This document shows, one piece after another, positions 1 through 22,423 of a stretch of 64,000 nucleotides of DNA (its first letter is position 1; each line of letters begins with the position of its first letter). The notes beneath the pieces are model-generated. The model was not told the origin of the DNA. It ran no database searches and worked only from the letters and a program-made list of their open reading frames with translations. The DNA comes from a bacterium (GTDB lineage: Bacteria > Electryoneota > JAOADG01), in NCBI GenBank assembly GCA_963681965.1, contig OY820579.1:1799379-1863378 (forward strand), in the 5' to 3' direction. Position numbers and translations under genes: made by a program.

Positions 1-755
1 GTCCTTATTCACTCGATTATATCAAGCAGTTCGATCCCGACTTTTTGGAACTGAACGGCGATCGTGGATTTCGCAATGACCGTGCGGTTGTCGGCGGACT
101 GTGTAATATCGACGGTATCCCGGTGATGGTGATCGCTCAGCAAAAAGGGCGAGGAACCAAAGAAAACCTACTTCGCAATTTCGGTATGAGTCATCCGGAA
201 GGGTATCGTAAAGCGATGCGCTTGATGAAAGTTGCGGAACGGTTCAGCGTACCGGTCGTTTCGTTGATCGATACTCCTGGTGCTTATCCCGGTATCGGCG
301 CTGAAGAGCGTGGTCAAGCAGAAGCAATTGCCCGCAATCTATTCGAGATGATCAATCTCAAGACACCGACTATTACGGTGATCATCGGCGAAGGCGGTAG
401 CGGTGGCGCTTTGGCTTTAGCTGTCATGGATCGCGTTCTAATGATGGAATTCGCGATCTATTCGGTGATATCACCCGAAGGGTGCGCATCGATTTTGTTC
501 CGTGACAGCTCGCAAGCAGAAAAAGCTGCGGAAAATCTAAAAATCACTGCCAATGATCTGGAGTCTCTCGGTGTAATCGATGAAATCATTCCAGAACCGT
601 TGGGTGGTGCTCACCGTGACTATTCGACTGCTGCCATCAACGTTCAGAAAGCGATCGGACGTAATCTCCGCGAGTTGATGGCGATCCAAAATCCCGATTG
701 GCAGCAAATGCGCATCGAGAAATATTCAAAGATGGGAGTATTTACGGTTGACTGA
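1..755 (+). CDS. accA: acetyl-CoA carboxylase carboxyltransferase subunit alpha (5' end outside window; in-frame from nt 3)
   Basis: Translation ...LDYIKQFDPDFLELNGDRGFRNDRAVVGG...GGSGGALALAV... matches the AccA carboxyltransferase core; the reading frame is open back to the window edge. Confidence 0.9.
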   Translation, partial: PYSLDYIKQFDPDFLELNGDRGFRNDRAVVGGLCNIDGIPVMVIAQQKGRGTKENLLRNFGMSHPEGYRKAMRLMKVAERFSVPVVSLIDTPGAYPGIGAEERGQAEAIARNLFEMINLKTPTITVIIGEGGSGGALALAVMDRVLMMEFAIYSVISPEGCASILFRDSSQAEKAAENLKITANDLESLGVIDEIIPEPLGGAHRDYSTAAINVQKAIGRNLRELMAIQNPDWQQMRIEKYSKMGVFTVD

Positions 756-1215
756 ACCGTGGATCATTACCACCTCAGTCCGGGTACGTTACGCCGACAC
801 CGATAAAATGGGTGTAATGTATTATGGGCGCTATATGGAATTGTTCGAAGTCGGTCGTACCGAATGGATTCGCGCCTGTTGGCGACCTTATGTCGAAATC
901 GAACGTGAAGGTGTTTTACTGCCGGTAGTGCATGCTGCAGCGACCTACCGGCAGAGTTTTCACTATGATGATCTAATCCAGATCCGGACTTTCCCAGTCG
1001 GAATACAGAAAGCTAGAATTAGATTTGGATATGAACTATTTGGTGATAACGATCAGCAACCGCGAATTATCGGTCTAACTGAACACGCTTTTGTCGATGA
1101 ATCCGGTAAGACCGTCAGAATACCGAGTAAATTGGCGCAGCTACTATCCGGGCGCGTTCCCGAGCAGTTAACGAAATTCGATTTACGCGACCATCTGTTG
1201 TCTTCGAACGGGTGA
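748..1215 (+). CDS. acyl-CoA thioesterase, YbgC/4HBT hotdog family
   Basis: TTG start overlapping the accA stop; N-terminus VRVRYADTDKMGVMYYGRYMELFE is typical of hotdog-fold thioesterases; 155 aa. Confidence 0.75.
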   Translation: MTEPWIITTSVRVRYADTDKMGVMYYGRYMELFEVGRTEWIRACWRPYVEIEREGVLLPVVHAAATYRQSFHYDDLIQIRTFPVGIQKARIRFGYELFGDNDQQPRIIGLTEHAFVDESGKTVRIPSKLAQLLSGRVPEQLTKFDLRDHLLSSNG

Positions 1216-1342: not shown

Positions 1343-1438
1343 TGTATCATATTATTGGAGAATGCCCTTAGCACCTTGCGACCGAACTAGGTTTGGCTAA
1401 ATATAACCTGATCGACAACTCTGTCGATCACAGTTGTG

Positions 1439-1460
1439 CCGAACCTTGGGTTCGGTTTTT
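1439..1460 (+). terminator. hairpin plus T-run (ccgaacc-ttg-ggttcgg-ttttt) 20 nt upstream of the porU start; leader terminator or attenuator-like
   Basis: Perfect 7-bp GC-containing stem followed by TTTTT, read directly from the sequence. Confidence 0.35.
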
Positions 1461-1480
1461 CGTTTGTTTGGAGAGATGGA

Positions 1481-4400
1481 ATGCGGTGGTTTTCGGTATT
1501 AATCTTCATTTTAATAACCAGTTCGTTTGCAAGTTCAAGGTTGCCTTCGAATACGCTTCCACTTGCCGGAGTGGCGCTCCGAGTCTCGACTTATGAACAA
1601 CTCGATTTCACCGTTTCCAGTGATATTGTGAATCGGGAATCGAAACCGGGATCTTGGAAAGTGAAAGCGATTGATGGAACCTACCGGGTCGATCGAAATG
1701 GTCTGAAACATCCAGCGAAATTAGTATGGATTGCCGTTCCTCCCGGAAAACGGGTTCAGTTGACCTCGATAAAACCACAATCGACTTCATATCTGTCGGG
1801 TACGCTCGAACCTGCAATCTCCGATACGGCTAGGTCTGACTTGTTACGCGCTATGACTGGATCGAATTGGATTGAAATTGGAGAGCTGAATACTTTGCTG
1901 GGACATACTGTTGTGCCAGTATATATCATGTTTGCCGTTCAAAATGGCAATAGTATTGCGTACTCCAGCAACATCGCTGTTTCACTGCGGTTTGTTGACA
2001 TTACTTCGACACAATCCGTCGATCGAACACAATTGGCGCCGCTTCCCGATTATATTTTGAATCATTCGACGGCGAACAGATGGCGAACCTCGCGATCTTC
2101 AATCATGTCGCTAACTCAAACATCAACTGTTGCCCCGATAGGACCACTGTACCGAATTTCAACCAATTCCGAGGGAATTACTGAAATCACAGGAGCGGAA
2201 TTACAGCGAGCCGGAATCAATCTATCCCAAATCGATCCTCTTTCAATTAGATTATTGAGTAATTCGGCAAAGCCATTGGATGAAGCGTTGACAGCGGCGT
2301 TAAAAGAACCGTGGAATGAAATTGCAATTCTTGTGGAAGACGGAAACGACGGTAGATTCGATCCAACCGATCGCATCTTGTTTTACGGTGAATCCACATA
2401 CGGTTGGTCCCGGAACTCTAATTCAACTTTCAGCCATTGGTTATCTCCATATACGCGCAAAGCGACTTATTTTCTCGATTTGAATCAAGGTGGATTACCC
2501 GGTCGCAGAATGTCATCACTCCCATCTGCCAACGATGAATTACTGGTGACCACAGCTATTGGTCGCTACCTTCGCGAAGACGATTTAAGCTGCTTTGCCA
2601 ATGCATCATTCACTACCTCCGGAACACGATGGGTGGGTCCGTTATTGACGAATACCTCGGATATCATTCTGACTTTGCCACTTGCCGGCGCAGTTGCTTC
2701 ACCTACCGGTATCGTAAAATTTTCTTCTCGGTGGGTATCAACCGATAATCTTTATCCATCCAATGGAAGATTTCTTTTGAACGGAACGCAATTCGACGCA
2801 TCATCGTTTTCCTATTACGATATTGTGATCAATAATCAGGCGAGCGCTTCGTTATTGCATGAGGGAGCGAATCAATTTACTGCGCGGAAAACGGGGAGCC
2901 ACGATTTTTACTTCGACTGGTTGGAAGTTGAATATCCCCGCGATTTGACCATGCGGAATGGAAAGTTATTTGCCGATGTAACTATCGGATCGAAATATCG
3001 GGTGAACATCACCACCACGACGCTTCCCTATGTATTCGAGGTTTCGAATCGCGATAGTGTTCGATGGATTCACAATAAGAGCTTTGCCGATTCTGGATCT
3101 TCATTACAGTATCGCCGCTACGTGGCATTCGACGAAGATGCCTTTTTACATGTAGTATCGATCGACCCCGCACGTTTTGGTGGTGAAGATTACTCCTATC
3201 TTCGGGACACAACATTATCGGCAGATTATTTATTGATCTACGATGACGATTATCACGATCCCGCCAAGAAATTGCGCGATTACCGGATCTCACATAATTC
3301 GGTTGATGCGAAGATGATCCGAATTCAGGATATTTACGATTGTTTCTCCGGGGGGAATGTCGATCCTGTCGCGATTAGGAATTTTCTTCGGTATACCGTC
3401 ACCTCTTGGTCGCGTTCTCATTCGATTCCCAAATATGTCATGTTATTCGGCGATGGCGACTACGATTATCGTGGAATTCTTCAACCGAATACTAATCGAC
3501 CGATTCCGGCATACGAAATCAGTACTTATGCCACGGACGATTATTTTACCAGATTGACTGGTTCGACTGCATTACCCGAAATGATATCTGCACGCTTACC
3601 GCTCCAAACGCCCCGACAGATGGATGCTTGGGTAGATAAATTGATGACCTACGAAACACAGCCGGTACCCGGAACATGGCGGAATAAAATCGTTTTATGT
3701 GCCGATGATGAGTATGGACAAGGCGGAACCTATGATGCATTTGAGCAAACCCATACCGAAAAAACCGAAGATATTTCCCGACGACTGATTCCAAATACAT
3801 ACGAGCAAGTGAAAATATACCTACTTGAATATCCTGCAATCGTCGATCCAGTTCAATTAGCAAATGTCAAACCGGAAGCAAATGCCGCATTATTGACCGA
3901 ACTCGAGCGCGGTGCTTTGATGGTGAATTGGATCGGGCATGGCAATCCGCGAGTTTGGGCGCACGAGCAATTGTTGCGTGAAAGTCGCGATTTAAACCGG
4001 ATTAATACCGGGATGAAACTGCCACTTTGGCTGGGTTTCACTTGCGATTGGGCTTACTGGGACGATGCCGCGGTTCAAAGTATGCCGGAAAAATTGTTAG
4101 GCTTATCGAACAATGGAGCGCTGGCGGTCGTTGCAGCAACTCGACCAACTGGTGCCGATCCCAATGAAATTTTAGCCGATTACTTTTTCCGGGCAATACT
4201 GGACACATTGCAGCATCCCCACCGGTCGATTGCCGAAGCGCTGACATTGGCAAAAGTCCAATCGGGAACCGATGCCCCGTATTCTCGCGCCAATTCCAGT
4301 TTATATACCTCGCTATGCGATCCGTTGACACGATTGGCATTGCCGGAATACGATATCGGAATCGATTCGATAACTCCATCGCCGATTACCCCATTGGCTC

Positions 4401-5383
4401 GCTCAATGACCCATGGTAAAGTAGTAATACAAGATGGATCCAGTCTTAGCGATGGTCAACTTACCGTCACATTGCGCAGTTCGCCATTGAAGCGAGTACA
4501 TCATTGGGATGATGATCCATCGAATTCAGCCATAACTTATTTCAAACCGGGAAGATTGCTGTTCCGAGGTACGACGACATTGACGGATACTAGTTTCCGA
4601 ACCCCATTATTGTTGCCGCTTGATGTTACCTATAATGACAGCGCAACTGCTTATGCTTATGCGAACGGTAGTTGGGGTGCGGCATCGGGAATTCTGATCA
4701 ATCAACGCACCGATTCGGTTTGCGCGAATTTACGCGATACGATTCCGCCTGCGATAAAGCTTTTTATTAACAATCGAGAATTTCGTAGCGATGATATTGT
4801 GAATGACAACCCGATTTTACTAGCCGATATCGTCGACTCCAGTGGTGTAAATTTGACCGGTGAAATCGGACATCGTATTATTGCAACGATTGACGGCAAG
4901 GATCTGGATTTTACCGAACAATTCGCCTACATGAACAATCAAGTCACCAAGGGAACGGTAGAATCGCCACTAGGCTTCCTCGATCCGGGCAAACATCACT
5001 TGCGACTGGTTGCCTTTGATGGTGCTAATAATCCCGGAGTCGCCGTGATTGATTTCGAAGTTGCCTCGACCTCTTCGGAGTTATCGGTGCGGAATCTGTT
5101 GAACTATCCGAATCCAATCAGTGGAAACACGGCTTTTACGTTCGAATGTTCCGTTGCCGGAACGGCTTCGATCGATATTTATTCAATACACGGTACAAAA
5201 ATCCGGTCAATATCTAGTTTCCCGATTCACATCGGGTACAACTATCCTTCGGAGGCGACATGGGATGCACGCGATAAAGATGGCGTGGATGTTGCCAACG
5301 GGGTTTATCTATGGCGACTAAAAGCGAAAGCCGACGATGGACGATCGGTGGATGCTACCGGTCGCGCAGCGGTTTTACGATAA
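1481..5383 (+). CDS. porU: PorU-like peptidase C25 family protein with T9SS C-terminal domain (candidate T9SS C-terminal signal peptidase)
   Basis: ATG at 1481 preceded by a GGAGAG RBS; signal peptide MRWFSVLIFILITSSFASS; C25-like candidate catalytic dyad (WIGHGN ... LGFTCDWAY); C-terminal ~90 aa resembles a T9SS CTD (NYPNPISGNTAFTF...GVYLWRLKA); located immediately upstream of porV, as in Bacteroidota. Confidence 0.7.
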   Translation: MRWFSVLIFILITSSFASSRLPSNTLPLAGVALRVSTYEQLDFTVSSDIVNRESKPGSWKVKAIDGTYRVDRNGLKHPAKLVWIAVPPGKRVQLTSIKPQSTSYLSGTLEPAISDTARSDLLRAMTGSNWIEIGELNTLLGHTVVPVYIMFAVQNGNSIAYSSNIAVSLRFVDITSTQSVDRTQLAPLPDYILNHSTANRWRTSRSSIMSLTQTSTVAPIGPLYRISTNSEGITEITGAELQRAGINLSQIDPLSIRLLSNSAKPLDEALTAALKEPWNEIAILVEDGNDGRFDPTDRILFYGESTYGWSRNSNSTFSHWLSPYTRKATYFLDLNQGGLPGRRMSSLPSANDELLVTTAIGRYLREDDLSCFANASFTTSGTRWVGPLLTNTSDIILTLPLAGAVASPTGIVKFSSRWVSTDNLYPSNGRFLLNGTQFDASSFSYYDIVINNQASASLLHEGANQFTARKTGSHDFYFDWLEVEYPRDLTMRNGKLFADVTIGSKYRVNITTTTLPYVFEVSNRDSVRWIHNKSFADSGSSLQYRRYVAFDEDAFLHVVSIDPARFGGEDYSYLRDTTLSADYLLIYDDDYHDPAKKLRDYRISHNSVDAKMIRIQDIYDCFSGGNVDPVAIRNFLRYTVTSWSRSHSIPKYVMLFGDGDYDYRGILQPNTNRPIPAYEISTYATDDYFTRLTGSTALPEMISARLPLQTPRQMDAWVDKLMTYETQPVPGTWRNKIVLCADDEYGQGGTYDAFEQTHTEKTEDISRRLIPNTYEQVKIYLLEYPAIVDPVQLANVKPEANAALLTELERGALMVNWIGHGNPRVWAHEQLLRESRDLNRINTGMKLPLWLGFTCDWAYWDDAAVQSMPEKLLGLSNNGALAVVAATRPTGADPNEILADYFFRAILDTLQHPHRSIAEALTLAKVQSGTDAPYSRANSSLYTSLCDPLTRLALPEYDIGIDSITPSPITPLARSMTHGKVVIQDGSSLSDGQLTVTLRSSPLKRVHHWDDDPSNSAITYFKPGRLLFRGTTTLTDTSFRTPLLLPLDVTYNDSATAYAYANGSWGAASGILINQRTDSVCANLRDTIPPAIKLFINNREFRSDDIVNDNPILLADIVDSSGVNLTGEIGHRIIATIDGKDLDFTEQFAYMNNQVTKGTVESPLGFLDPGKHHLRLVAFDGANNPGVAVIDFEVASTSSELSVRNLLNYPNPISGNTAFTFECSVAGTASIDIYSIHGTKIRSISSFPIHIGYNYPSEATWDARDKDGVDVANGVYLWRLKAKADDGRSVDATGRAAVLR

Positions 5384-5405
5384 TGGAATCAATACGGAGG
5401 ATTGC

Positions 5406-6452
5406 ATGAAACGACTACTGATTTCAGTGCTAATGGGAATGATTGCACTGTTGATCTGCGCCCAGGCTTATGCCGGAGTTTCGGAAGCTGCGGCATTATT
5501 CCTGAAAATTTCCCCGGGTGCCCGGTACGGTGGCATGGGTGAAGCCGGTGTTGCACTGACCGACGATGCCAGTGCGACGTGGTGGAATCCCGCCGGACTC
5601 GGATTTCAGAACCAGCGACAGATTACTATGATGCACGCAAATTGGTTGCCGCAGTTCCATCTTCCCGACCTATACTACGACTTTATTTCGTACGTGCACA
5701 CTGTTCCTGAAGTAGGAACATTCGGTGGTCAGATTATCTTCCTCAATTTGGGAACTTCGACCAGAACCGATGAAGTCGGTAACGAACAGGGAACATTCTC
5801 GACCTACGAAGGGGCATTGGGAGCTTCCTACGGTACGCAACTTAATCAGCAGACTGCGCTCGGTATCAGTTTTAGAGTGATTTACTCGCATCTATCCGAT
5901 CGTGGCGCTGGTGCTGAAAAAGGTTCCGGGAGCGCAACCGGAGTTGGAGTCGATGTCGGCGTAATCCATAAGGCGAAGTTTCTCAAGGGTCTTCAGTACG
6001 GTGCGAACTTGTCGAATATGGGTCCGAAAATTTCCTATATCGATGCCGCTCAAGCCGATCCCATTCCGACCAATTTGAAATTAGGCGTTGCATATCACTT
6101 ACTCGATACCGAATTCAACAAAGTAACATTTGTAGCCGATGTCGATAAGGAACTGGTTCGCAAATACAGTGATGGTACATCCGATCCATTTTATGTAGCA
6201 TTGGTTACTAGTTGGACTGATGAGCCATTGATTCAGGAAATGATTTATCACGTTGGCGCTGAATATTGGTATACGAATTTGGTCGGATTGCGGATGGGCT
6301 ACTGGAACGACCAACAAGGTAAAGTCAAACCATTGACGTTCGGTGCTTCGCTGCAATATTCGGTCTATCGTTTCGATTTTAGCTATGTTTCCGCCGGTGA
6401 AGGACATCCTTTGACCGATACAATGCGCTTCTCGCTATCGATTGGTCTCTAA
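5406..6452 (+). CDS. porV: PorV/LptO-family outer membrane beta-barrel (T9SS shuttle protein)
   Basis: GGAGG RBS then ATG at 5406; signal peptide MKRLLISVLMGMIALLICAQAYA; conserved PorV N-terminal motif GARYGGMGEAGVALTDDASATWWNPAG; FadL-like barrel pattern; adjacent to porU. Confidence 0.75.
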   Translation: MKRLLISVLMGMIALLICAQAYAGVSEAAALFLKISPGARYGGMGEAGVALTDDASATWWNPAGLGFQNQRQITMMHANWLPQFHLPDLYYDFISYVHTVPEVGTFGGQIIFLNLGTSTRTDEVGNEQGTFSTYEGALGASYGTQLNQQTALGISFRVIYSHLSDRGAGAEKGSGSATGVGVDVGVIHKAKFLKGLQYGANLSNMGPKISYIDAAQADPIPTNLKLGVAYHLLDTEFNKVTFVADVDKELVRKYSDGTSDPFYVALVTSWTDEPLIQEMIYHVGAEYWYTNLVGLRMGYWNDQQGKVKPLTFGASLQYSVYRFDFSYVSAGEGHPLTDTMRFSLSIGL

Positions 6453-6504: not shown

Positions 6505-9500
6505 GTGACTAATCGATTGTACTTAATAGCGGGTTTGATTGCGGTACTGGTTTCGGTTTCGGTGGCAGTATCTACTCCACTAAAACCGTTATTTCGAGGA
6601 GTGAAGTCCGGTTCCGATTTCAAATCGCGGTCGATTGTCAGCTTGCGTCCGACGATGCGGATTCTCGCAATTCGTGTCGATTTTCCACGCGATACCATTT
6701 CGACTACGACCGGTGATGGTGGTTTCGATTTTGGAAATCGCGAAGGACGCAAAATCGATCCGCCTCCACATGACAGCAGTTATTTTCAAGATCAGTTCAA
6801 ATTTGTCGATCACTATTTTCGACAAGTTTCGGGAAACCGATTGTCGATGGAGGCTACGGTTTTTCCCTCCGGCAATCGTATTGCTTACCGAATGTCTGAG
6901 CCGATTTGGCATTATCATCCCGATCCTGCCGACAACGACTTGACCAATCAACGGATTACCGAATTGTGGCGGGAAGCATGGAACGCCGCGGGTCAAGATC
7001 CCAATGTTCACTTTTATACTGTGAGTGGGACTGATACCATTCCTAATTACGACCTCTATGTTGTTTTGCATGCCGGTTCTGGAAATGAATACGATTTAGG
7101 GTATGACGATACTCCGTTCGACATCCCTTCGGGATTCATGACCAAAGCTGATTATTCAAAATATTTATCCATAACCAATCCCCGTGGATTACCCATAACG
7201 ACTTCTGACGGTGGCACCTTCTACATCCCGGAAGGTGCCTTACTGCCGGAGATGTCGTCGCAGAAAACCGGTTCCGAATGGATCGATATCGGAGTCGGAG
7301 GTCTTTATACATTTTTACTCGGTCGATCGATCGGTATGCCGTTCCTGTACGATGTCGACAAGGGAACCTCGCGAGTTGGACGGTGGAGCCTGATGGATCG
7401 TGGATTCGGAACGTTTTTCGGTATTCTTCCCGGATATCCCGACGCCTATACTCGAATGCGGATGGGCTGGGTACAACCAGTTCCAGCACCCGATACCGGC
7501 ATCGTGGAACTTCGAATTCCGCAGGATACACTCCATCCCACGCTGCCTGAAGTCATGCGGTTCGAAGGTGCCGGCGACGAATATTATCTGATGGAAGCCC
7601 GGAATCGCGATCCTGATTCGGTGAAATGTGCTTATGTCTATGATGTTGCCGGACATCGTGCCAAACTGACCGATCAATATGAAATCGAACTTGATACCTC
7701 ACTCGCTAATTCATTTGGCGTGATCGTTCGTGCCGATAATTACGAATTCGATACACCCGGTAGTGGAGTGCTCGTTTGGCGCGTGAATGCTGCTGAAGAG
7801 CGACGTCGTACCGCGTTGAATATCCCTTTCCAAACCGGTTCTATACCGTATGTTTTGAAATTAATCGAAGCCGATGGTTCCGAGGATTTCGGTCAGAATT
7901 ACGATATGTTTTCACCCGGGAGTGGTACTGAAACCGGATCTCCCTACGATGCATTTTTCCGGAATAATACCGAATGGTCGCATGCCAATGGCGACGATGG
8001 CGCAGTTCGCTTTTCACGCGAAGTAAATCCCCCGGCAATCACTTCGAATGGTGCGCCACTACAGTTTACACTTGGGCAATTCTCTTCAGTTGGTTGGACG
8101 ATGTCCTTCCGGGTTTATCGAAATTCGAATCAACTGGAAGGCGAGAAACGGTTCCGGATTTCGCCGTCGAAGTCACCCGTCGTAGCAATTCCCTTTGATG
8201 TGAACAACGACCGCTTCGATGAAGTTTGGATTGCCGACAGTAATGCCATTTACGGACTTACTACCGATGGAAATTGGATCGGCACCGACACAATCCGATT
8301 CGTAACGCACGATCAGACCACAGGTGCGATGCTGGATTCGATTGCTTCGCCGGCACTATTCCACTTCGACGGTCCTCCGATTCGGAAAATGGTCTTTCAT
8401 AACGCTTCCGGATCGTTGCGAATATTAGCCTATCGATGTTATGCCGATGGTAGCGGAAAACGATTGACAGATTATGCTTGCACACTGCCAATTTCCGGAG
8501 CAGTGTCGTTATCGCAACATTCGATCGATCTACCGGGAGCAGTGACTACACTTGCTTGCGACGAAACCAGTAATCAGTGGATTGTTGGATTGAGTGATTA
8601 TGCAATTGTACGCGATTCGATCCGGACCAATCCACAATTAGTAATGACGTTTATCAATCGATCTTATCATCTCGATATTCTGAATCCGAGTGGCACAGAT
8701 CTCGAATTTCCACTCCCATCGGATCTATCGGGAAATCCGGAAATCTTTGGTTTAAACTCTACTGTTCCGCTGGCAGGTGTTGGAAATCGATTATACCGGT
8801 ATTCCGGAACGGAATGGTCCCTTGATCCTTCGTTTTCGATGGTCGCCGATTCGATTAAAGCGATTGGCTGGACAAGTGAAAACGCTGTTGTTATTACTCG
8901 CAACCAGTGGCTATTAACCAATGGTAAATCGCTTCGAACCGGATTTCCGCGCAGATTGCCATCCTCTTCAGCGCCAATATCTTTGGTGGCTGCCAAGACA
9001 ACACAAACCGATCCGGTAATCTGGTACGGCACCGAAACCGGTGAATTATGGAAATTGTATCGTGATCGAGTGGATCGCAATTATCCGATTGCGATCGGTA
9101 TTCAACCCGTGGACGGTTTGGTTTTGTTGACTGCTCATCATATACCTACTGCTCCGGATTCGGTGCGATTGGCAGCGGTGTCTCGCGATGGTGTGGTTTT
9201 TTTGACGACTTTACCCTTATCGGATGTTGAAGCGGCTACTTGGGCAGCCCCTGCCGGTACCGGCTCCGGATTACCGAATTCTACTCCCGAACGGGATTGG
9301 TCGGTGATGTACGATAACGGTCTCTCGTATGCATTCGTATGGCCCAATCCGATCAAGGGGAATCAGGGATTTGTCCGGGTAGGGTCAAATCAAGCCGGAA
9401 TGTCCCAAGCCAAAGCCGAAGTATTCGACGTTATCGGAGAGCGAATCGCGACACTACATAATCCCTATCCAGTAGAAGGGGGCGGGTACGAATGGCGCTG

Positions 9501-9594
9501 GGATGTTTCTTCAGTCTCGCGTGGTTTGTATATCGTTCGCGTTCAAGTTCCCGGTGCTCCGGTTAAAATGATCAAAGCAGCGGTGGTAAAATGA
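6505..9594 (+). CDS. M6 (immune inhibitor A)-like pseudo-metallopeptidase with T9SS C-terminal sorting domain
   Basis: GTG start after an AAGGACGGA RBS; signal peptide; M6-like landmarks are LAIRVDFPRD, HAGSGNE, GRWSLMDRG and YTRMRMGW, but the HEXXH position reads FLLGR; C-terminus PNPIKGNQGFVRV...GLYIVRVQVPG is a type-A T9SS CTD. Confidence 0.6.
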   Translation: MTNRLYLIAGLIAVLVSVSVAVSTPLKPLFRGVKSGSDFKSRSIVSLRPTMRILAIRVDFPRDTISTTTGDGGFDFGNREGRKIDPPPHDSSYFQDQFKFVDHYFRQVSGNRLSMEATVFPSGNRIAYRMSEPIWHYHPDPADNDLTNQRITELWREAWNAAGQDPNVHFYTVSGTDTIPNYDLYVVLHAGSGNEYDLGYDDTPFDIPSGFMTKADYSKYLSITNPRGLPITTSDGGTFYIPEGALLPEMSSQKTGSEWIDIGVGGLYTFLLGRSIGMPFLYDVDKGTSRVGRWSLMDRGFGTFFGILPGYPDAYTRMRMGWVQPVPAPDTGIVELRIPQDTLHPTLPEVMRFEGAGDEYYLMEARNRDPDSVKCAYVYDVAGHRAKLTDQYEIELDTSLANSFGVIVRADNYEFDTPGSGVLVWRVNAAEERRRTALNIPFQTGSIPYVLKLIEADGSEDFGQNYDMFSPGSGTETGSPYDAFFRNNTEWSHANGDDGAVRFSREVNPPAITSNGAPLQFTLGQFSSVGWTMSFRVYRNSNQLEGEKRFRISPSKSPVVAIPFDVNNDRFDEVWIADSNAIYGLTTDGNWIGTDTIRFVTHDQTTGAMLDSIASPALFHFDGPPIRKMVFHNASGSLRILAYRCYADGSGKRLTDYACTLPISGAVSLSQHSIDLPGAVTTLACDETSNQWIVGLSDYAIVRDSIRTNPQLVMTFINRSYHLDILNPSGTDLEFPLPSDLSGNPEIFGLNSTVPLAGVGNRLYRYSGTEWSLDPSFSMVADSIKAIGWTSENAVVITRNQWLLTNGKSLRTGFPRRLPSSSAPISLVAAKTTQTDPVIWYGTETGELWKLYRDRVDRNYPIAIGIQPVDGLVLLTAHHIPTAPDSVRLAAVSRDGVVFLTTLPLSDVEAATWAAPAGTGSGLPNSTPERDWSVMYDNGLSYAFVWPNPIKGNQGFVRVGSNQAGMSQAKAEVFDVIGERIATLHNPYPVEGGGYEWRWDVSSVSRGLYIVRVQVPGAPVKMIKAAVVK

Positions 9595-12500
9595 AGCGAA
9601 CGACTGCCTACTCGATTTTAGGAATATCGCTCCTGCTGCTGATTGGAGTGGCGTTTGCGCAAGTAACTCCATTCAATCACGCTGAATTATTATGGCGAAC
9701 GATCGAAGGGAAGCACCACATCGTCCATTACCACGTCGGCGCTGAACGTACTGCTCAAATGATTTTGGATATTGCCGACGAAGTACATCAACCACTTGCC
9801 GATCTGTACAAATACGAACCGGATACGAAAGTCAACTGGGTCATTTACGATACCGACGATTATGCCAACGGCGCGACGTATTTCCTGAACAATCGCATCG
9901 TGATCTGGGCACCGGCACTCGATTTTGAATTTCGTGGTACGCATAATTGGCTTCGAAATGTTGTGACGCATGAATATACTCATATGATTCAACTCGGAGC
10001 TGCACGGAAGTGGTCGCGACAGATGCCGGCGATCTACGGACAGTATATCGGTTATGAACCGGAAACCCGACCCGATGTTCTGTATGGTTTCCCGAATCGG
10101 ATCATGAGTTACCCACTATCCAATACTACCGTTCCTCATTGGTTTGCCGAAGGAACAGCACAATCGATGCGCCGCGGAATGAATTACGATTATCGCGATA
10201 GCCACCGCGAGATGCTTCTTCGCTCTCGAGCGCTTGCCGACAATTTGTTGACGATGGATGAGATGGGTGTCTTCGAGAAGACTAGTCTTGGCGGCGAATT
10301 GGTTTACAACCAGGGATTTGCGTTAGTTCAATACATAATCGACCGGTTCGGTGAAACTGCTTTAAGAACACTATCTGAATCACTCGGGTCAATGTCGGTT
10401 TGGTCGTTCGATGCCGCGTGCCGGAAGACACTGGGTATACCGGCTCAGAAGCTTTACGATGAATGGGTTCGCGCGATGAAGGAAACCTATCGCGTGCGCA
10501 CTGAAACAATACGCCAGCACGAAGTGACCGGTCGATTGTTGGAAGAAGATGGCTTTGCTAATCTATATCCACGATGGTCGATCGACGGGAAAAAAATATA
10601 CTTTACCTCGAATAAGGAAAAGGATTATTTCGGTGGATCGTCGTTGGTCGAGATGAATCTTGCAACCGGTAAGAAAGAGAAGCTCGTCAAAACAATGGCA
10701 CCCTTTGCAGTTCACCCGAATGGCAAAGGATTGATCTATTCGGAACAACCGTTACAAAAGGGGCAGCGACGACTCGACGATCTATTCTTCTACGATTTTG
10801 CGAAGAAAAAATCCTACCGGCTGACTTATGCCGAACGTGCGCAACAACCCGATGTTTCATCGGATGGGAAAAAGATTGTCGCCGTCACGCAATCCGACGG
10901 AACGATGAATCTTGTCGTGTTTGAACTTCCCGATTCGATCAAAGCCGATGTGAAGCAAAAAGCACAACTGAAGAAACGAGTATTGACATCCTATGTCAAT
11001 GGCGAACAATTATCTCACCCTCGATTTTCACCTGACGGAAATAAAATTCTTTATTCTTTCGCACGCGAACAAAACCGCGATCTATTCGAATTCGATCTAA
11101 CGACAAATACTTCCACGCTACTGCGCGCGAGTAAATGGGATGACCGCGACGTCGCATGGTCAAAAGATGGTCAGTGGATCTATTTTTCCAGCGACTCAAC
11201 TGGTATCTGGAATATTTACCGGATGCGTAGCGATCGCACAATCATCGAACCGGTGACGAATGTTGTCGGCGGTGCTCTGCTCGGTGAACCATCGCCGGAT
11301 GGTGCGAAATTGGCATTCTGTCGATACGAATCGACCGGCTATAAGTTAGCATTATTGGATAAAATCGAACCAGTCGATCGAGCATACATGCAGTATCAAC
11401 AGAACTATGCTCAATCGCTGCCGAATGTGTCGATACCCGATTCGATGCCACCGGCGAAACCAGTCATGAAATACAAACCGGCATTCGAGAAAACCTATAT
11501 TCTTCCGCGAATTGCTTGGGATTACGGTCGTTTCAAACCCGGTTTCTATGTCTATACGAACGATTATCTGGAAAAATTGAACCTGTTCGGTGGCTTTGCG
11601 ATTAATGGTAAGAAGGACTACGACTTGTATTTGTCGACCGACTACCGACAACTTCCACCGACGTTGTTCATGGACTTTTACAATATCGTCCGTCACGACG
11701 ATAAACGATTCGATGATCCGCTCCGAATTGTTGGTCAATCCGGTCACGGTGATTCAGCCCAACCGATTTATGCACAATATGGAACAAAATATAAGTTCAC
11801 GTTGCTCGAATTGGATATCGGTTTCCGGTACAATATCGATGAGAAGACTGTTGCCAGTTTGTATGGTATGTTCTCGCGCTACAGTGCGGCACTAGATTTC
11901 GACGACGGTTCATCATCGTTTGGTTACACGTATTTCAAAGGTCACAGTCTTGTCGCTTCGCTTACGCAAACCGCAATTACGCGCAGTGTAACCGATGACA
12001 TCAATCCGTCCGGTGGTTATCAATTCGGAATTCGGGCGCAACGCTCGCAGCACAATTACATCCAAGGGTTCACCATCAACGCCGATAAACTGACACTGCA
12101 GGAAGTCTATTCACCCTACAATTACTGGCAGTTGGAAGGATCGTTTAATTATTATCAGAAGCTCTGGCATAAATGGGTGATGTCGCCGTCGGTTAAACTT
12201 GGTTATATCGATCGTAACGTCGATCCATTCATGAATCTTTATGCCGGTGGTTTGTTCGGGATGCGCGGCTATTCGTTCTATAGTCTTGGTGGTACTCGCA
12301 CGACTATTGCACAACTAGCACAGGAACTCCCGTTGTGGGAGCCGATGGGCAAACGACAGTATCTCGGTTGGGTACATCCGATAAGCGTCTATGCCAATCT
12401 ATTCGCCGATGTCGGATCGGCATGGCGTGGCGATGTGCAACATGCAAAATGGGTGCGGGATTTGGGTGGTGAATTGCGGTTTGGTTCGATATCGGTATTC

Positions 12501-12677
12501 AGTTATCCTACCGCGATCACGTTGTCGGCAGCACGCGGATTAGACCGGGTATCGGTGACCGAAAACGACAATACGACCGTATATGCGCCCCAGTGGCGAT
12601 ATTACTTCACAATTTTATTTGGATTTACTCAACCGCCGACTGGAATACAACCAGCTCGTGCGATTGACCGGCAGTAA
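9591..12677 (+). CDS. fusion protein: peptidase-MA-like (HEYTH) domain + TolB-like PD40 beta-propeller + Omp85-family (BamA/TpsB-like) C-terminal beta-barrel
   Basis: ATGA overlap with the upstream gene; signal peptide; HEYTHM zinc motif at aa 127-131; six or more PD40-like blades (WSIDGKKIYFTS, FSPDGNKILYSF, WSKDGQWIYFSS, PSPDGAKLAF...); C-terminal ~450 aa of alternating beta-strand pattern with an Omp85 loop-6-like GGLFGMRGY motif and a beta-signal-like YYFTILFGF near the C-terminus. Confidence 0.55.
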   Translation: MKRTTAYSILGISLLLLIGVAFAQVTPFNHAELLWRTIEGKHHIVHYHVGAERTAQMILDIADEVHQPLADLYKYEPDTKVNWVIYDTDDYANGATYFLNNRIVIWAPALDFEFRGTHNWLRNVVTHEYTHMIQLGAARKWSRQMPAIYGQYIGYEPETRPDVLYGFPNRIMSYPLSNTTVPHWFAEGTAQSMRRGMNYDYRDSHREMLLRSRALADNLLTMDEMGVFEKTSLGGELVYNQGFALVQYIIDRFGETALRTLSESLGSMSVWSFDAACRKTLGIPAQKLYDEWVRAMKETYRVRTETIRQHEVTGRLLEEDGFANLYPRWSIDGKKIYFTSNKEKDYFGGSSLVEMNLATGKKEKLVKTMAPFAVHPNGKGLIYSEQPLQKGQRRLDDLFFYDFAKKKSYRLTYAERAQQPDVSSDGKKIVAVTQSDGTMNLVVFELPDSIKADVKQKAQLKKRVLTSYVNGEQLSHPRFSPDGNKILYSFAREQNRDLFEFDLTTNTSTLLRASKWDDRDVAWSKDGQWIYFSSDSTGIWNIYRMRSDRTIIEPVTNVVGGALLGEPSPDGAKLAFCRYESTGYKLALLDKIEPVDRAYMQYQQNYAQSLPNVSIPDSMPPAKPVMKYKPAFEKTYILPRIAWDYGRFKPGFYVYTNDYLEKLNLFGGFAINGKKDYDLYLSTDYRQLPPTLFMDFYNIVRHDDKRFDDPLRIVGQSGHGDSAQPIYAQYGTKYKFTLLELDIGFRYNIDEKTVASLYGMFSRYSAALDFDDGSSSFGYTYFKGHSLVASLTQTAITRSVTDDINPSGGYQFGIRAQRSQHNYIQGFTINADKLTLQEVYSPYNYWQLEGSFNYYQKLWHKWVMSPSVKLGYIDRNVDPFMNLYAGGLFGMRGYSFYSLGGTRTTIAQLAQELPLWEPMGKRQYLGWVHPISVYANLFADVGSAWRGDVQHAKWVRDLGGELRFGSISVFSYPTAITLSAARGLDRVSVTENDNTTVYAPQWRYYFTILFGFTQPPTGIQPARAIDRQ

Positions 12678-12708: not shown

Positions 12709-13626
12709 ATGTGGTATAAATTAATCATTTTGGTTTTAGCGTTGTGTTCGATTTCCTTCGCGATACCGTACAAGGAAGCGGATAATTCCGATAATATGCA
12801 ACCATTACCGAAGTCACTCAGTCAACTTCAGCATGAGCGCGAAATCAAACTGGTGGCAGCGATGGAAAGTGGTGCCCCAACCGATTCGACAACTGCTGCT
12901 CCGGTAAAAGGTCCGAATATGGGCAAAGCGATGTTGTTATCGGCGATCATGCCCGGAACCGGTCAACTCTACATCGGAAGCAAATGGAAAGGGTATACTT
13001 TCCTAGGAATCGAAGCCGCTGCTTGGACAATGGCAATCATGTACAATGTCAAAGGCAACCAAACAACGAAAGATTTTCAGAATTATGCCGAATCCCACTG
13101 GGGTGTAAACGAATCCTTATATCGCCAAAAGGAATTCTATTACGCGACATTGAATAGTCTCCCCTCGCGAATTTCTTCGACACCTTATCAGGGAACCCGT
13201 GCCGATTGGGATTTATTGAGCTGGGATGACAAATCGAAATATTTACCATCGAACTTCACCCACGAACTGCCGTCATCGCATAATCAGCAATGGTACGAAA
13301 TGATTGGTAAGTATTTGACGCAATTCGGTCCCTTCTGGGATGACGCCGATACTTCGTCTTCGGCATACAGTGCGACCGGCGTTTGGTCAGGATCCAGTAC
13401 AACTGCCAATAAATACGCCGACAAACGATATGATGCGAACAAGCAATTGAAAGCCGGAAATACAATGTTCATGGTTGTAATGATCAATCACGTATTGTCC
13501 GCAACGGACGCTGTATTATCGGTTAAAGCGATGAACAATCGAACCGTCCAAACTGCCGTTCGATTGGAACAGCGAAGCTTCAACAATGAAGTAGTCACGA
13601 TGCCAACACTTCATATTACGTTCTGA
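12709..13626 (+). CDS. secreted hypothetical protein, paralog A (PG-x-GQ motif family, DUF5683-like)
   Basis: AGGAGG RBS; signal peptide ...CSISFA; motifs SAIMPGTGQLY + hydrophobic GIEAAAWTMAI and C-terminal VMINHVLSATDAV shared with the next ORF. Confidence 0.55.
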   Translation: MWYKLIILVLALCSISFAIPYKEADNSDNMQPLPKSLSQLQHEREIKLVAAMESGAPTDSTTAAPVKGPNMGKAMLLSAIMPGTGQLYIGSKWKGYTFLGIEAAAWTMAIMYNVKGNQTTKDFQNYAESHWGVNESLYRQKEFYYATLNSLPSRISSTPYQGTRADWDLLSWDDKSKYLPSNFTHELPSSHNQQWYEMIGKYLTQFGPFWDDADTSSSAYSATGVWSGSSTTANKYADKRYDANKQLKAGNTMFMVVMINHVLSATDAVLSVKAMNNRTVQTAVRLEQRSFNNEVVTMPTLHITF

Positions 13627-13628
13627 CA

Positions 13629-14264
13629 ATGAAACGACTCTATCTGGTAATTTTTTCTGGATTGATTGCGCTGACGTCGTTTGCGCAACCGCTCCCGCGT
13701 CCGAAAGCACCTACCGGTTCAACGGTATTTTTCAAGTCGCTGTTGTTACCGGGATGGGGGCAGATGTCGCAGGGAAGACCAAAAGAGGCTACAATTTTCC
13801 TGTCATCCGAAGCGATCCTAATTGTTACTACATTTGGTTTGCAAACCTACGGTGATTGGCTCAAAAGCGACTATCGATCGGTAGCAGCGCTCTATGCCGG
13901 GATCCCGAATGGCGGTAATCGGAACCATACAATGTATGTCGATATGGGAAATTGGAATACCGTGGAAGAATTCAATGCTGCACGACAACGCGATCGCGAA
14001 TATGATCGACAATATTTGAAAGCCGAGGATCAGTGGCGCTGGACGAATGATTCCGAACGAAGGCGTTTTAAAGCGCTTCGTTTGAAATCGGATAAAGTAT
14101 TGGAATCGGTTAAATTCTCGATCGGTGCGGTAGTCGTCAATCATTTTATTGCCGCAATTGAAGCATCAGCATTCGAACGTAAGAAAGTGAAAAACCCGTC
14201 GATCGGTGTCACGATGTCGGGAACAACGAGCGAACCACAGGTTCGACTTCATGTGAATTGGTAA
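13629..14264 (+). CDS. secreted hypothetical protein, paralog B (PG-x-GQ motif family, DUF5683-like)
   Basis: Starts 2 nt after the paralog A stop; signal peptide ...LTSFA; motifs SLLLPGWGQM + SSEAILIVTTF and C-terminal VVNHFIAAIEASAF. Confidence 0.55.
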   Translation: MKRLYLVIFSGLIALTSFAQPLPRPKAPTGSTVFFKSLLLPGWGQMSQGRPKEATIFLSSEAILIVTTFGLQTYGDWLKSDYRSVAALYAGIPNGGNRNHTMYVDMGNWNTVEEFNAARQRDREYDRQYLKAEDQWRWTNDSERRRFKALRLKSDKVLESVKFSIGAVVVNHFIAAIEASAFERKKVKNPSIGVTMSGTTSEPQVRLHVNW

Positions 14265-18177: not shown

Positions 18178-20142
18178 ATGGCTACTAGAAAACGGGCAGG
18201 GGGGGATTCTCCTGCCCGTTCTCAGTCTATTTCCGAATTAGCGGTTCCACTGGAAGATAAGTTGGAATCGCTGCCGATGCGTCCGGGGTGCTATCTATTC
18301 AAAGATAGTAAAGGCAAAGTTATTTATGTCGGCAAAGCGAAATTGCTCCGCAATCGTGTTCGCAGTTATTTTTCCGGTCGTAGCGATGGGAGAGCACAAT
18401 TTCACCGTCTAGTGAATGCAATTCGCGATCTTGAGATCATTATCGTCGATAGTGAAATTGAAGCATTAATTCTCGAAAACAATCTGATCAAATTTCATAA
18501 ACCCCGTTACAACATCGATCTCCGCGACGATCGCGGTTATCCCTTCTTGAAAATAACCAATGAACCTTTTCCACGTATCTTTCTTCAGCGAACACCCGGG
18601 AACGACGATGCTAAATATCTAGGTCCATTTATGGAAGTTACGGCATTGCGGAGTCTGGTAAGAGAGTTGAAGAAGACCTTTCGGATTCGAACGTGTGAGT
18701 TGATAATTAACTCCGATTCGATTGCCAAAAAGAAACACAAAATCTGCTTACAATATCACCTGAAACTCTGCGATGGACCCTGCGAAGGACTGACTACGGA
18801 AACCGAGTATCAAGCGAATGTGAAATCGATGATCGATTTACTCAATGGTCGGACAACCGGTTTCGAACGGAAATGGCAGAATCGCATGACTGAATTAGCT
18901 GCAGCCAAACGATTTGAGGAAGCAGCGTTGTTCCGAGATCAATTGCGCGCGATTCAACACATGGCATCCCGCCAACGGGTATTGTCAGTCGATCCCTATG
19001 ATCGCGATGCCGTCGGAATTTATCGCATTGACGATGAAGCTTGTGTCGTACTATTGCGAATTCGAAACGGGAAAATGGTCGGTCGATTGCACTATTTCCT
19101 GACACAAATCGATCCCGATCACACCGAGCCGGAATTGGTGTCGGCATTTCTATTTCGACACTATTCCACCGCCGACATCCCGCCAGAGATTTTTGTGCAA
19201 AGCGAATCGGAAGAGTGGGATACGATTGCAATCGCACTCAAAAAGCTTCGCGGAAGCAACTGCAAGATCGAAGTACCCAAAATCGGCGATAAAGCGGGAC
19301 AGGTCCGATTGGCAATTGCCAATGCCGAATTGTTGCTCGGTCAGAATATGCTCTCAAAACAGAAACGCGATTTCATTCCGCAAAGTATGAAGGGACTACA
19401 GGAGTTGCTGGGTCTGGAAAAAGCACCGACTCGGATAGAGTGTTTCGATATCTCGCACTTAGCCGGAACCGGTACAGTAGCGTCTATGGTCTGTTTTGTC
19501 AATTCGAAACCGGCTCGCTCGGAATATCGTAAATTTGTCGTAAAGACCGTCACCGGGATCGATGATTTCGCCTCGATGAAAGAAGTAGTCGGTCGACGTT
19601 ACAAGCGGCTTATATCGGAAGAAAAATCGCTGCCGGATGTAATATTGATTGACGGTGGTAAAGGTCAACTCTCAGCCGCTCGCGAAGCACTTGCCGAAGT
19701 CGGTATTCCCGATCACCCGATACTAGGATTGGCAAAGCGTGTCGAAGAACTATTTTTGCCGCAAGAAACTGAATCGCGGATCCTTCCCAGAACCTCAAGC
19801 GTTCTTAGAGTGTTGCAACAGATTCGCGACGAAGCGCACCGCTTTGCCGTGACATTTCAGCAACAACGCCGCAATCTTTCGCTCAAATCCCAACTGGAAG
19901 AGATCCCAGGGATTGGTGAGGCACGACGTCAACTATTGATGAAACGATTTGGAAGCGTTGCAGCGATGAAGAAAGCATCGATCGAAGAAATTGCCGAAAT
20001 CGGTGCAATCGGTTCCAAATTGGCTAATAAAATTCTGGTCTATCTGAATGCGAATGGACAAACGAATGAACTCAATCAATCTGGAAACGATGAAATATCG
20101 AAACCGATTGGTTCGAATGGAGACAATGATGGTGAAGAGTAA
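18178..20142 (+). CDS. uvrC: excinuclease ABC subunit C
   Basis: GIY-YIG motif PGCYLFKDSKGKVIYVGKAKLLRNRV; C-terminal HhH; 654 aa from the ATG at 18178. The start is uncertain; the alternatives are TTG at 18262 or ATG at 18277. Confidence 0.85.
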   Translation: MATRKRAGGDSPARSQSISELAVPLEDKLESLPMRPGCYLFKDSKGKVIYVGKAKLLRNRVRSYFSGRSDGRAQFHRLVNAIRDLEIIIVDSEIEALILENNLIKFHKPRYNIDLRDDRGYPFLKITNEPFPRIFLQRTPGNDDAKYLGPFMEVTALRSLVRELKKTFRIRTCELIINSDSIAKKKHKICLQYHLKLCDGPCEGLTTETEYQANVKSMIDLLNGRTTGFERKWQNRMTELAAAKRFEEAALFRDQLRAIQHMASRQRVLSVDPYDRDAVGIYRIDDEACVVLLRIRNGKMVGRLHYFLTQIDPDHTEPELVSAFLFRHYSTADIPPEIFVQSESEEWDTIAIALKKLRGSNCKIEVPKIGDKAGQVRLAIANAELLLGQNMLSKQKRDFIPQSMKGLQELLGLEKAPTRIECFDISHLAGTGTVASMVCFVNSKPARSEYRKFVVKTVTGIDDFASMKEVVGRRYKRLISEEKSLPDVILIDGGKGQLSAAREALAEVGIPDHPILGLAKRVEELFLPQETESRILPRTSSVLRVLQQIRDEAHRFAVTFQQQRRNLSLKSQLEEIPGIGEARRQLLMKRFGSVAAMKKASIEEIAEIGAIGSKLANKILVYLNANGQTNELNQSGNDEISKPIGSNGDNDGEE

Positions 20143-21541
20143 ACAACCTCGACGGAAATGGTTATGGATGATTCTAACGATTCTTATAATCGGATCATCA
20201 GTTGTTGTGATAGCGGCAAGCAATGAATCGCGTACTTGTTTTATTTATCCCCCATTCAAACATACTTGGGGTGTGGTTCGAGGAACTCCAGCTAAGTTAT
20301 TCATGTTAGTCGGGAAACGAGCCACTTTTGCAGAGCCATTAGGACTTTGCTGCGTGCGGCTCGATTGTTGGGATGACCCGAAAATTGCTGGCGATGACGA
20401 CGAAGTGACAGTTTACGGCGTCAATTCCAATCAAAATATGGTGATCTATAATAAATCGATGTTTGAATTGGGGATATATGGCGACCGTGAGACCGGATCG
20501 GCAAAACTCAATAAACCTTGGGGTGTAGCTGCCAACAATAAAGGTGACGTGTTTGTAACCGATTTAGGGAATAACCGAGTGGTGAAATTGTTCAATCCCA
20601 AATCGGAATTGAAGTATGTATCGGCTTTCGGCTCGCTAGGTTCAAATAATGGTCAATTCAATTCACCTCGAGGTATTGCACTTGACAACCGCGGAATGAT
20701 CTATGTCGCCGATTATCTGAATAATCGCGTTCAGATTTTCAACTCATCCGGTGTTCATCAGCGAACCATCTTCGGAGTATTGGGTCCGATTGCTGTTGCC
20801 GTGATCGATGCCGAGGATCGTTGGAGCTACTCTTATGGACCGCGTCGCGAAGAATTTCTAATTGTCGTTGACTCGCTCGATGCACGTATTTCGAAATATT
20901 CGCTTGAAGGCGATCTGCTGGAACGGGTAACCTCGGGCGATTGGGGTGCTGGTACCTGTCAACTTCAATTCTGCACAATCGATTATTTCTCGCAGGTTTT
21001 ATTAACCGACCGGAAAAATAATTGTATCTGGAAACTGGATCGTGATTTGAAAATGATCTGTCGGTTTGGTCGCAAAGGTACTTCCGATTACGAATTCGAC
21101 GATCCGAGGGGAATTACGATGTATCGTCGCTTTGGTCAGACCTTTGTTGCGGAACGGGAAGGGGCACAATATTTGTGGGTTGCCGTCGACTTACTTCACC
21201 CACAGGCAAAATGGGATGAGAAGACACGAATCTTGACCATCACCGGAATTTATTCCGAACCGGCGTTGGTTGATATGGACTTACTTGATGCATCCGATAA
21301 AATTGTAACCAGAGTTGCGATGATCCGATCTACTGCTGGACCGTTCCAACATGAGTGGGATGGAAATATTAAAACATTTCCAAAATCAGGGTTGACCGAT
21401 GCCGAACAATCGCAAGCAGCCCGGTTCCAAGATGGAAAACCGGTACCTCCCGGAAGTTACAAATTGAGGATCGCTTCGAAAGCGACCTATTCTTCAATCA
21501 AGGATTTCGTACAGGTGTTGACGATACCTGTCACACTTTAA
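20126..21541 (+). CDS. NHL-repeat beta-propeller protein with N-terminal signal anchor
   Basis: KSKQPRRK followed by a hydrophobic LWMILTILIIGSSVVVIAA stretch; NHL repeats (NKGDVFVTDLGNNRVVKLF; PRGIALDNRGMIYVADYLNNRVQIF); the start overlaps the uvrC 3' end by 17 nt. Confidence 0.6.
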   Translation: MMVKSKQPRRKWLWMILTILIIGSSVVVIAASNESRTCFIYPPFKHTWGVVRGTPAKLFMLVGKRATFAEPLGLCCVRLDCWDDPKIAGDDDEVTVYGVNSNQNMVIYNKSMFELGIYGDRETGSAKLNKPWGVAANNKGDVFVTDLGNNRVVKLFNPKSELKYVSAFGSLGSNNGQFNSPRGIALDNRGMIYVADYLNNRVQIFNSSGVHQRTIFGVLGPIAVAVIDAEDRWSYSYGPRREEFLIVVDSLDARISKYSLEGDLLERVTSGDWGAGTCQLQFCTIDYFSQVLLTDRKNNCIWKLDRDLKMICRFGRKGTSDYEFDDPRGITMYRRFGQTFVAEREGAQYLWVAVDLLHPQAKWDEKTRILTITGIYSEPALVDMDLLDASDKIVTRVAMIRSTAGPFQHEWDGNIKTFPKSGLTDAEQSQAARFQDGKPVPPGSYKLRIASKATYSSIKDFVQVLTIPVTL

Positions 21542-22338: not shown

Positions 22339-22359
22339 CAGGATCAACATGAATTTGAA

Positions 22360-22388
22360 AAAGCAGGCGAAAAGCCTGCTTTTTTGTT
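22360..22388 (+). terminator. intrinsic terminator (agcaggc-gaaa-gcctgct + TTTTTTG)
   Basis: Perfect 7-bp stem, GAAA tetraloop, T6 run. Confidence 0.75.
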
Positions 22389-22423
22389 GTATCTTATGGT
22401 TTAACAAGAATAGAAATTCACTG

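Follow-up and report, generated by a model that had tools for sequence, protein, structure and literature searches.

We analysed a 64,000-nucleotide stretch of a bacterial genome (GTDB lineage Electryoneota, JAOADG01; assembly GCA_963681965.1, contig OY820579.1, positions 1,799,379 to 1,863,378 of the forward strand), called the window below, for a gene whose product resembles the M6-family metallopeptidase InhA and appears to have lost its zinc site. The M6-like gene lies in a cluster with type IX secretion system (T9SS) genes, the order being accA, a 4HBT thioesterase gene, porU, porV, the M6-like gene, a gene for a 1028-aa protein and two DUF5683-like genes, all on the forward strand. An initial annotation of this DNA had described the M6-like protein as an exported pseudo-protease and quoted five motifs from it. 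All five were found in place in the 1029-aa open reading frame (ORF), whose coordinates are identical in an independent public gene call (ENA ERZ21878129). The stop codon of the M6-like gene and the start of the downstream gene share four nucleotides (ATGA, nt 9591-9594).

The zinc site was located by alignment to InhA. A first protein search returned 83 sequence relatives of about 1000-1150 aa; their N-terminal parts were aligned with MAFFT, and a family profile of 81 aligned homologs was compared with the sequences in the PDB. The profile matched InhA (4yu5_A) at E=5.3e-9, placing its segment 'GllaalfGhlLGLpdLYdte' onto the InhA zinc-motif stretch, pairing 'HAGaGaef' with 'HAGVGQEA' and setting 'fgLMDrG' on 'WSLMSGG'. 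The zinc site of the Asp-zincins, as given in PMC3890501, is HExxHxxGxxD. In the window protein F-L-x-x-R...F falls on H-E-x-x-H...D, corresponding to His1 to Phe, Glu to Leu, His2 to Arg and Asp to Phe; the first five of these positions, FLLGR, are encoded by TTT TTA CTC GGT CGA (nt 7312-7326). The same alignment column reads HEFGH or HEYGH in the most distant full-length relatives, and the residue six positions after the second His is Asp in these relatives and Phe in the window protein. Neither HExxH nor HxxEH occurs anywhere in the 1029 residues. With all four zinc-site residues replaced, the window protein is best described as a pseudo-metallopeptidase whose ancestral site is predicted to have lost zinc-dependent proteolysis.

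These results uphold the initial annotation in placing the former active site at FLLGR and in calling both zinc-ligand histidines and the catalytic glutamate replaced, and add the Asp to the losses. They also agree with its pairing of GRWSLMDRG and HAGSGNE with InhA segments; within the former, G292 and M297 are invariant, and within the latter, H189 and G191 are unchanged across 81 of 81 aligned homologs, zinc-site-intact and degenerate alike. The fifth landmark, YTRMRMGW, is present, but its InhA counterpart is only loose.

The similarity to M6 peptidases was recovered in several ways. The window protein matches NCBIfam NF052323 at E=6.4e-82 (276 bits, with aa 43-543 aligned only; curated cutoff 600 bits) and the TIGR03296 M6 domain at E=1.6e-14 (54.5 bits, under the 110.8 cutoff). 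An AlphaFold2 model of the N-domain (aa 43-545; predicted local distance difference test score, pLDDT, 81; predicted template-modelling score, pTM, 0.87) was compared with the PDB using Foldseek and found the zymogen of Bacillus anthracis InhA2 (4yu6_B; E=1.8e-10, prob 1.0, template-modelling score 0.52) as its sole significant match, the next best having E=0.39. Consistent with the profile alignment to 4yu5_A, the protein is thus predicted from its model to have the InhA/M6 fold. NCBIfam and the 81-homolog profile support M6 similarity at levels far from chance expectation, whereas Pfam Peptidase_M6 (PF05547) gave no match at E<0.1. Neither outcome that would have refuted the annotation, an intact HExxH in another place or a lack of significant M6 similarity, was observed. 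A PDB search with the window sequence alone returned no match, so that the family profile was required; likewise, a scan of a genome collection found no match with the window protein alone and succeeded with the family alignment.

Four close full-length relatives, all from unclassified metagenome-assembled genomes (MAGs), share 46-57% identity with the window protein. The remaining first-round homologs match mainly its N-terminal half, the named ones coming from Calditrichota, KSB1, Ignavibacteriales and Ca. Electryoneaceae, and in the genome scan at least 489 genomes at species level proved to carry a relative. HExxH is missing from the orthologs as well (78 of 83 first-round homologs). When zinc-site states were tallied over 163 distinct sequences from first-round homologs and genome loci, HExxH was missing from 158, and the four positions occurred in more than 50 combinations, with H-E-H-D in just 5. 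While these ligand positions vary freely, the surrounding scaffold (G266, G273, G277, P279, G292, M297 and D298) is nearly invariant. Within the window clade, identity is 75% in the cleft (aa 258-325), 64% in the N-domain, 52% in the C-terminal domain and 34% in the propeller. At the level of sequence, strong constraint is centred on the former cleft, comprising the active-site helix and the Met-turn, which is the best-conserved segment.

NCBI curators have reached the same view for this family, naming NF052323 "T9SS-dependent M6-like inactivated metalloprotease" (T9SSA_dep_M6i). Scores against the model fall from 872 bits in an Ignavibacteria-type homolog (P0042) through 596 (P0048), 540 (P0045), 498 (P0022), 440 (P0006), 386 (P0010), 311 (P0004) and 285 (P0002) to the 276 of the window protein. 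The window clade scores lowest of the zinc-less branches, and the model evidently derives from the Ignavibacteria-type one. Entire branches escape it, since the window clade, like most members from Calditrichota and KSB1, falls under its cutoff and is left "hypothetical"; the closest relatives of the window protein are annotated "hypothetical protein" in NCBI. The window protein belongs, as a divergent and unannotated member, to a family that is catalogued yet unstudied. As NF052323 is curated, the idea of a pseudo-protease was itself anticipated, and its novelty is modest. What is new is the porV-linked cluster around the M6-like gene, the series of intact and degenerate zinc sites, and the high conservation of the dead cleft.

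We surveyed this linkage by tblastn of the window proteins against 80 related genome loci, counting for each neighbour the loci with enough flanking sequence on the side examined. porV lies immediately 5' of the M6-like gene in 70 of 70 loci, the 1028-aa gene lies downstream in 63 of 64, and the DUF5683 pair follows in 47 of 47. Taxa with the conserved linkage include Calditrichota, KSB1, Ignavibacteriota and unclassified MAGs. A true NF052323 member (861 bits, locus L067) has the order porU-porV-M6i-...-TolB/HExxH gene, the same as the window, and is flanked by a canonical porU (825 bits; NF033707 cutoff 420) and porV (270 bits on the T9SS_OM_PorV equivalog, cutoff 250). On that equivalog the window porV reaches 210 bits, under the cutoff; the cutoff of PorV_fam, the family given for it in Table 1, is 90 bits. 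We also considered whether the flanking genes might be the PorU2 and PorV2 paralogs (NF052324, NF052325), and rejected this on the canonical PorU and PorV scores in the window and in L067.

In relatives with a retained zinc motif the gene is found in the same position. A profile of five HExxH-bearing relatives, searched against 1.84 billion representative proteins, retrieved 1998 representatives at E<=1e-30. H-E-H-D is kept in 103 of 148 new top-match representatives, and others among them are near-intact, with HQ..H, HD..H, HE..L or YE..H. The zinc-motif-intact loci read (accA)-(trm112)-porU-porV-M6-DUF5683-like-DUF5683-like-NHL... in 6 of 6 checked, and a homolog of the 1028-aa gene was absent from all six. 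In one degenerate protein, P0136 (HQFGY), the Met-turn motif is GDFSLMDNN, as in HEFGH-bearing proteins, which points to at least one independent inactivation. Its locus (L088) is without the 1028-aa gene, and this weakens the idea, which we had considered, that loss of the M6 site is always paired with the gain of a neighbouring intact peptidase gene. The locus of another degenerate protein, P0132 (HLFGY...S), has a 1030-aa PD40/Omp85 gene. As a separate observation, the porV of L088 (4419-6992) encodes an 857-aa fusion with two PorV matches, LysM and Reg_prop, the usual length being 340-390 aa.

The 1028-aa protein encoded downstream carries an intact HExxH...E site that the initial annotation overlooked. 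Its HExxH and W[FY]AEG motifs are kept in 67 of 67 orthologs. A single operon, in one and the same set of genomes, thus shows strict retention of one metallopeptidase motif and loss of the M6 motif. The annotation had called the M6-like gene translationally coupled to an Omp85 fusion. The ATGA overlap is real, but Omp85 similarity at the C-terminus of the window's 1028-aa protein is weak (BamA E=3e-5, TamA E=0.017); a Pfam Omp85 match is carried by an ortholog. We found no family name for the 1028-aa protein. In one KSB1 MAG (L024, 13787-16777) its ortholog contains a single in-frame stop codon, which may reflect an error of sequencing, pseudogenization or recoding.

The full-length AlphaFold2 model of the M6-like protein (pLDDT 81.5, pTM 0.75) has four parts: a signal helix, the M6-like domain, a propeller and a confident beta-sandwich at aa 940-1028. 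In Foldseek this model returned beta-propellers alone, and the family profile matches seven-bladed propeller lectins (PHL/PLL, E ~2e-9). The propeller is of the FG-GAP/VCBS type in relatives, and homologs carry Pfam matches to FG-GAP/VCBS and to the sorting domain PF18962. Another claim of the annotation, export of the protein as T9SS cargo, depends on this sorting domain, which is clear at the family level: there the profile finds the C-terminal sorting regions of PorU (6za2, E=1.5e-7) and PorZ (5m11, E=4.4e-6). For the window protein alone the domain is sub-threshold (PF18962 20.3 bits, cutoff 27; TIGR04183 15.7 bits, cutoff 23) and was the sole Pfam match.

Table 1. Features of the porV-linked cluster in the window (nucleotide positions are those of the window; aa, residues of the encoded protein).
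Feature	Nucleotides	Strand	Residues	Remarks
accA-like carboxyltransferase	45..755	+		upstream of porU
4HBT thioesterase	748..1215	+		upstream of porU
porU, T9SS sortase (C25 peptidase)	1436..5383	+		NF033707 618.8 bits; Peptidase_C25 E=4e-74; public start 1481
porV-family outer-membrane barrel	5337..6452	+		PorV_fam 282.9 bits; public start 5406
M6-like gene	6505..9594	+	1029 aa	GTG start
Predicted Sec signal peptide (M6-like protein)	6505..6573	+	aa 1-23	boundary approximate; hydrophobic helix, no Cys; model helix aa 2-21
Predicted M6/InhA-like domain with attached beta-sandwich	6652..8139	+	aa 50-545	pLDDT mostly >90
LAIRVDFPRD			aa 54-63	
HAGSGNE	7069-7089	+	aa 189-195	counterpart of InhA HAGVGQE
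IGVGGLYTFLLGRSIGMPFLYD	7288-7353	+	aa 262-283	contains FLLGR
Degenerate zinc motif FLLGRSIGMPF	7312-7344	+	aa 270-280	at the HExxHxxGxxD position
GRWSLMDRG	7378-7404	+	aa 292-300	retained Met-turn-like segment (InhA 'AWSLMSGG')
YTRMRMGW			aa 315-322	
Predicted beta-propeller region	8140..9309	+	aa 546-935	from the model; aa 594-734 low-confidence
Predicted T9SS type A C-terminal sorting domain	9310..9591	+	aa 936-1029	ends ...KMIKAAVVK
Gluzincin-type/TolB-like propeller/Omp85-like barrel gene	9591..12677	+	1028 aa	
Intact HEYTH (1028-aa protein)	9969-9983	+	aa 127-131	Peptidase_MA_2-like region
WFAEGTA (1028-aa protein)	10140-10160	+	aa 184-190	
DUF5683-like genes, two	12709..13626 and 13629..14264	+		weak Pfam matches; end of conserved cluster
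NHL-repeat protein gene	20048-21541	+	497 aa	~6 kb downstream of the cluster

Several further features of these loci deserve mention. An accA gene sits a short way upstream of porU, both in the window and in numerous distant relatives with the zinc motif present or absent, and is an unexpected, deeply conserved neighbour of a secretion gene; a 4HBT thioesterase gene or a trm112-like ORF often lies between the two (accA-porU loci L003, L005, L010-L012, L083 and L085-L087). Some loci of the zinc-less clade (L067, L042, L029 and L046) have an extra gene between the M6-like and TolB/HExxH genes, which in L067 (13059-14438) encodes a 459-aa protein with no NCBIfam match. In zinc-motif-intact loci the gene right behind the DUF5683-like pair encodes an NHL-repeat protein, and the more distant NHL-repeat gene of the window may have become dispersed from that cluster as a remnant. 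Two other window ORFs on the forward strand (22349-23842, 497 aa, and 36119-38182, 687 aa) had no Pfam match at E<=1e-5, and an Rfam scan of the window found nothing.

On balance we think it probable that the M6-like protein is a pseudo-metallopeptidase acting in the PorV/PorU cargo-attachment module as a binding subunit without catalysis. The protein would be exported by Sec and then carried across the outer membrane by the T9SS; its C-terminal domain would dock on PorV, and it would stay at the cell surface as part of the module. There the blunted peptidase cleft could hold a peptide segment, and the propeller a glycan or protein. The zinc-motif-intact relatives occupy the same slot and inactivation seems to have occurred more than once, so the function shared by the post-porV slot probably does not need catalysis. 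A binding or scaffolding role, which the initial annotation had also suggested, is what we infer from these observations.

A wider proposal is more tentative, and we put it forward as one possibility. The M6-propeller-CTD protein (CTD, C-terminal domain), with its zinc site intact or lost, might be a hitherto unrecognised core accessory of the T9SS attachment module in phyla of the Fibrobacteres-Chlorobi-Bacteroidetes (FCB) group outside Bacteroidia (Calditrichota, KSB1, Ignavibacteriota and relatives). Its gene would belong to an ancient cluster, porV-M6-DUF5683-DUF5683, with accA and porU often in front. The protein might serve as a PorV-docked surface binding subunit, the counterpart of PorZ, with a peptidase activity that is dispensable and has been repeatedly lost. 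The adjacent HExxH/TolB/Omp85-like protein might be a further component in the zinc-less lineages.

Several points weigh against assigning the protein to the attachment module. porU adjoins in only 14 of 43 zinc-less loci, with unrelated housekeeping genes upstream in the others, so the tie is to porV and not to the whole module. Conserved gene order indicates functional linkage rather than a physical complex, and a very abundant, co-regulated cargo could yield the same pattern. The retained binding cleft is proposed from conservation of the sequence. The propeller of the window clade is divergent and poorly modelled, and apart from the C-terminal domain the protein shows no similarity in sequence to PorZ. 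Full-text searches of the literature turned up no publication about this family.

It is possible, though we hold it to be rather unlikely, that the protein is ordinary T9SS cargo, a surface adhesin or ligand binder built on a dead protease scaffold, and that its place behind porV reflects co-expression with the shuttle. A signal peptide and a type A C-terminal domain are the standard layout of cargo, the NCBI name says simply "T9SS-dependent", and lectins and FG-GAP adhesin modules are what the propeller looks like; the frequent separation from porU noted above fits as well. Cargo genes are normally scattered and variable, however, whereas the M6-like gene has the same post-porV slot across several phyla, with fixed downstream partner genes, and its zinc-motif-intact relatives have that slot too. 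This strict linkage suggests closeness to the secretion machinery instead of the generic cargo role in which the initial annotation had cast the protein.

The overlap of the M6-like gene with the gene behind it raises another idea, in our view improbable, in which the M6-like protein is a non-catalytic partner or regulator of its neighbour: once its gene had been acquired, the 1028-aa protein would have taken over proteolysis, and the M6 domain would have been retained for binding or presenting substrate or for anchorage to the barrel. The strictly conserved peptidase motifs of that neighbour are in keeping with this, as is its presence in nearly all zinc-less loci and its absence from the six zinc-motif-intact ones, but the association may stem from one shared ancestor and not from cause. 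P0136, moreover, lost its zinc site without the neighbour gene, and the peptidase and TolB parts of the 1028-aa protein would be expected in the periplasm, whereas a T9SS substrate ends up outside, so that direct cooperation of the two would call for an explanation. Very improbable is a surviving enzyme that uses other residues (for example H89/D90, H189, E359 or E364) or a different chemistry. Away from the old site, several polar residues are indeed invariant or nearly so across the family; most of them, however, are equally conserved in the zinc-motif-intact relatives (H166/D167, E435, E440) and therefore predate the loss and do not form a replacement site, H189 is common to InhA, and no other catalytic family was matched in Pfam or NCBIfam. 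Finally, the empty Pfam and single-sequence PDB searches might suggest a spurious alignment or a pseudogene, but this is refuted by E-values from 1e-82 to 1e-9 in three independent methods, by the intact 1029-codon ORF with its full-length orthologs, and by the cleft being the most conserved part of the protein, as it would not be in a decaying gene.

Almost all that is known of T9SS mechanism comes from Bacteroidia (P. gingivalis, Flavobacterium); here a gene is linked to porV in all genomes examined across several other phyla. The pseudo-protease call alone adds little, as the NCBI name already says "inactivated"; the genomic context matters more. It offers two candidate T9SS components, the M6-like and 1028-aa proteins, for study in culturable hosts such as Caldithrix abyssi, whose genome carries the cluster (L010), and Ignavibacterium. 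In addition, the natural series from an intact zinc motif through a Glu to Gln change to a fully degenerate site allows for study of how a protease becomes a binding protein.

Among known T9SS components, PorZ of P. gingivalis is a non-enzymatic, surface-exposed protein with two propellers and an uncleaved C-terminal domain that binds anionic lipopolysaccharide (A-LPS) and cooperates with PorU, PorV and PorQ in the attachment complex (PMC8545088). Like PorZ, the M6-like protein would combine a propeller with a C-terminal sorting domain, but it is modelled with one propeller following an M6-like domain, whereas PorZ lacks a peptidase-like domain and its propellers number two. NF052228, the model for PorZ, did not match the window protein at E<=1, and the likeness may be a functional analogy at most.

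InhA (MEROPS M6; 4yu5, 4yu6) appears to share its catalytic-domain fold and the HAGxGxE strand with the window protein, and the helix scaffold G..G...G..LGLP and the Met-turn WSLM with the M6-like family. It differs in having HExxHxxGxxD where the window protein has FLLGRSIGMPF, and in its C-terminal domains, in place of which the window protein has a predicted propeller and T9SS sorting domain. InhA comes from a Firmicute, the window protein from a Gram-negative organism of the FCB type.

Another comparison is with the large zinc-motif-intact sister clade (for example P0079-P0083 and P0084-P0131), whose members of about 1050-1190 aa have the architecture of the window protein, share the motifs DPPPHD and EADG..D.G with its family and lie in the same slot, accA-(trm112)-porU-porV-M6-DUF5683-like pair. 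Unlike the window protein they keep HExxHxxGxxD and are without the downstream HExxH/TolB/barrel gene, and their N-domain is 29% identical to that of the window protein. The catalogued family NF052323 is close as well: its model is similar in length (1043 aa, compared with 1029 aa), its M6-like domain, propeller and T9SS C-terminal domain come in the order predicted for the window protein, and its zinc motif is also lost. The window protein stands apart in scoring far under the 600-bit cutoff with only its N-terminal half aligned, and in having Phe where passing members often keep the third-ligand Asp (S..GS...GLPD). Both, as the L067 and window loci illustrate, occupy the same slot directly behind porV.

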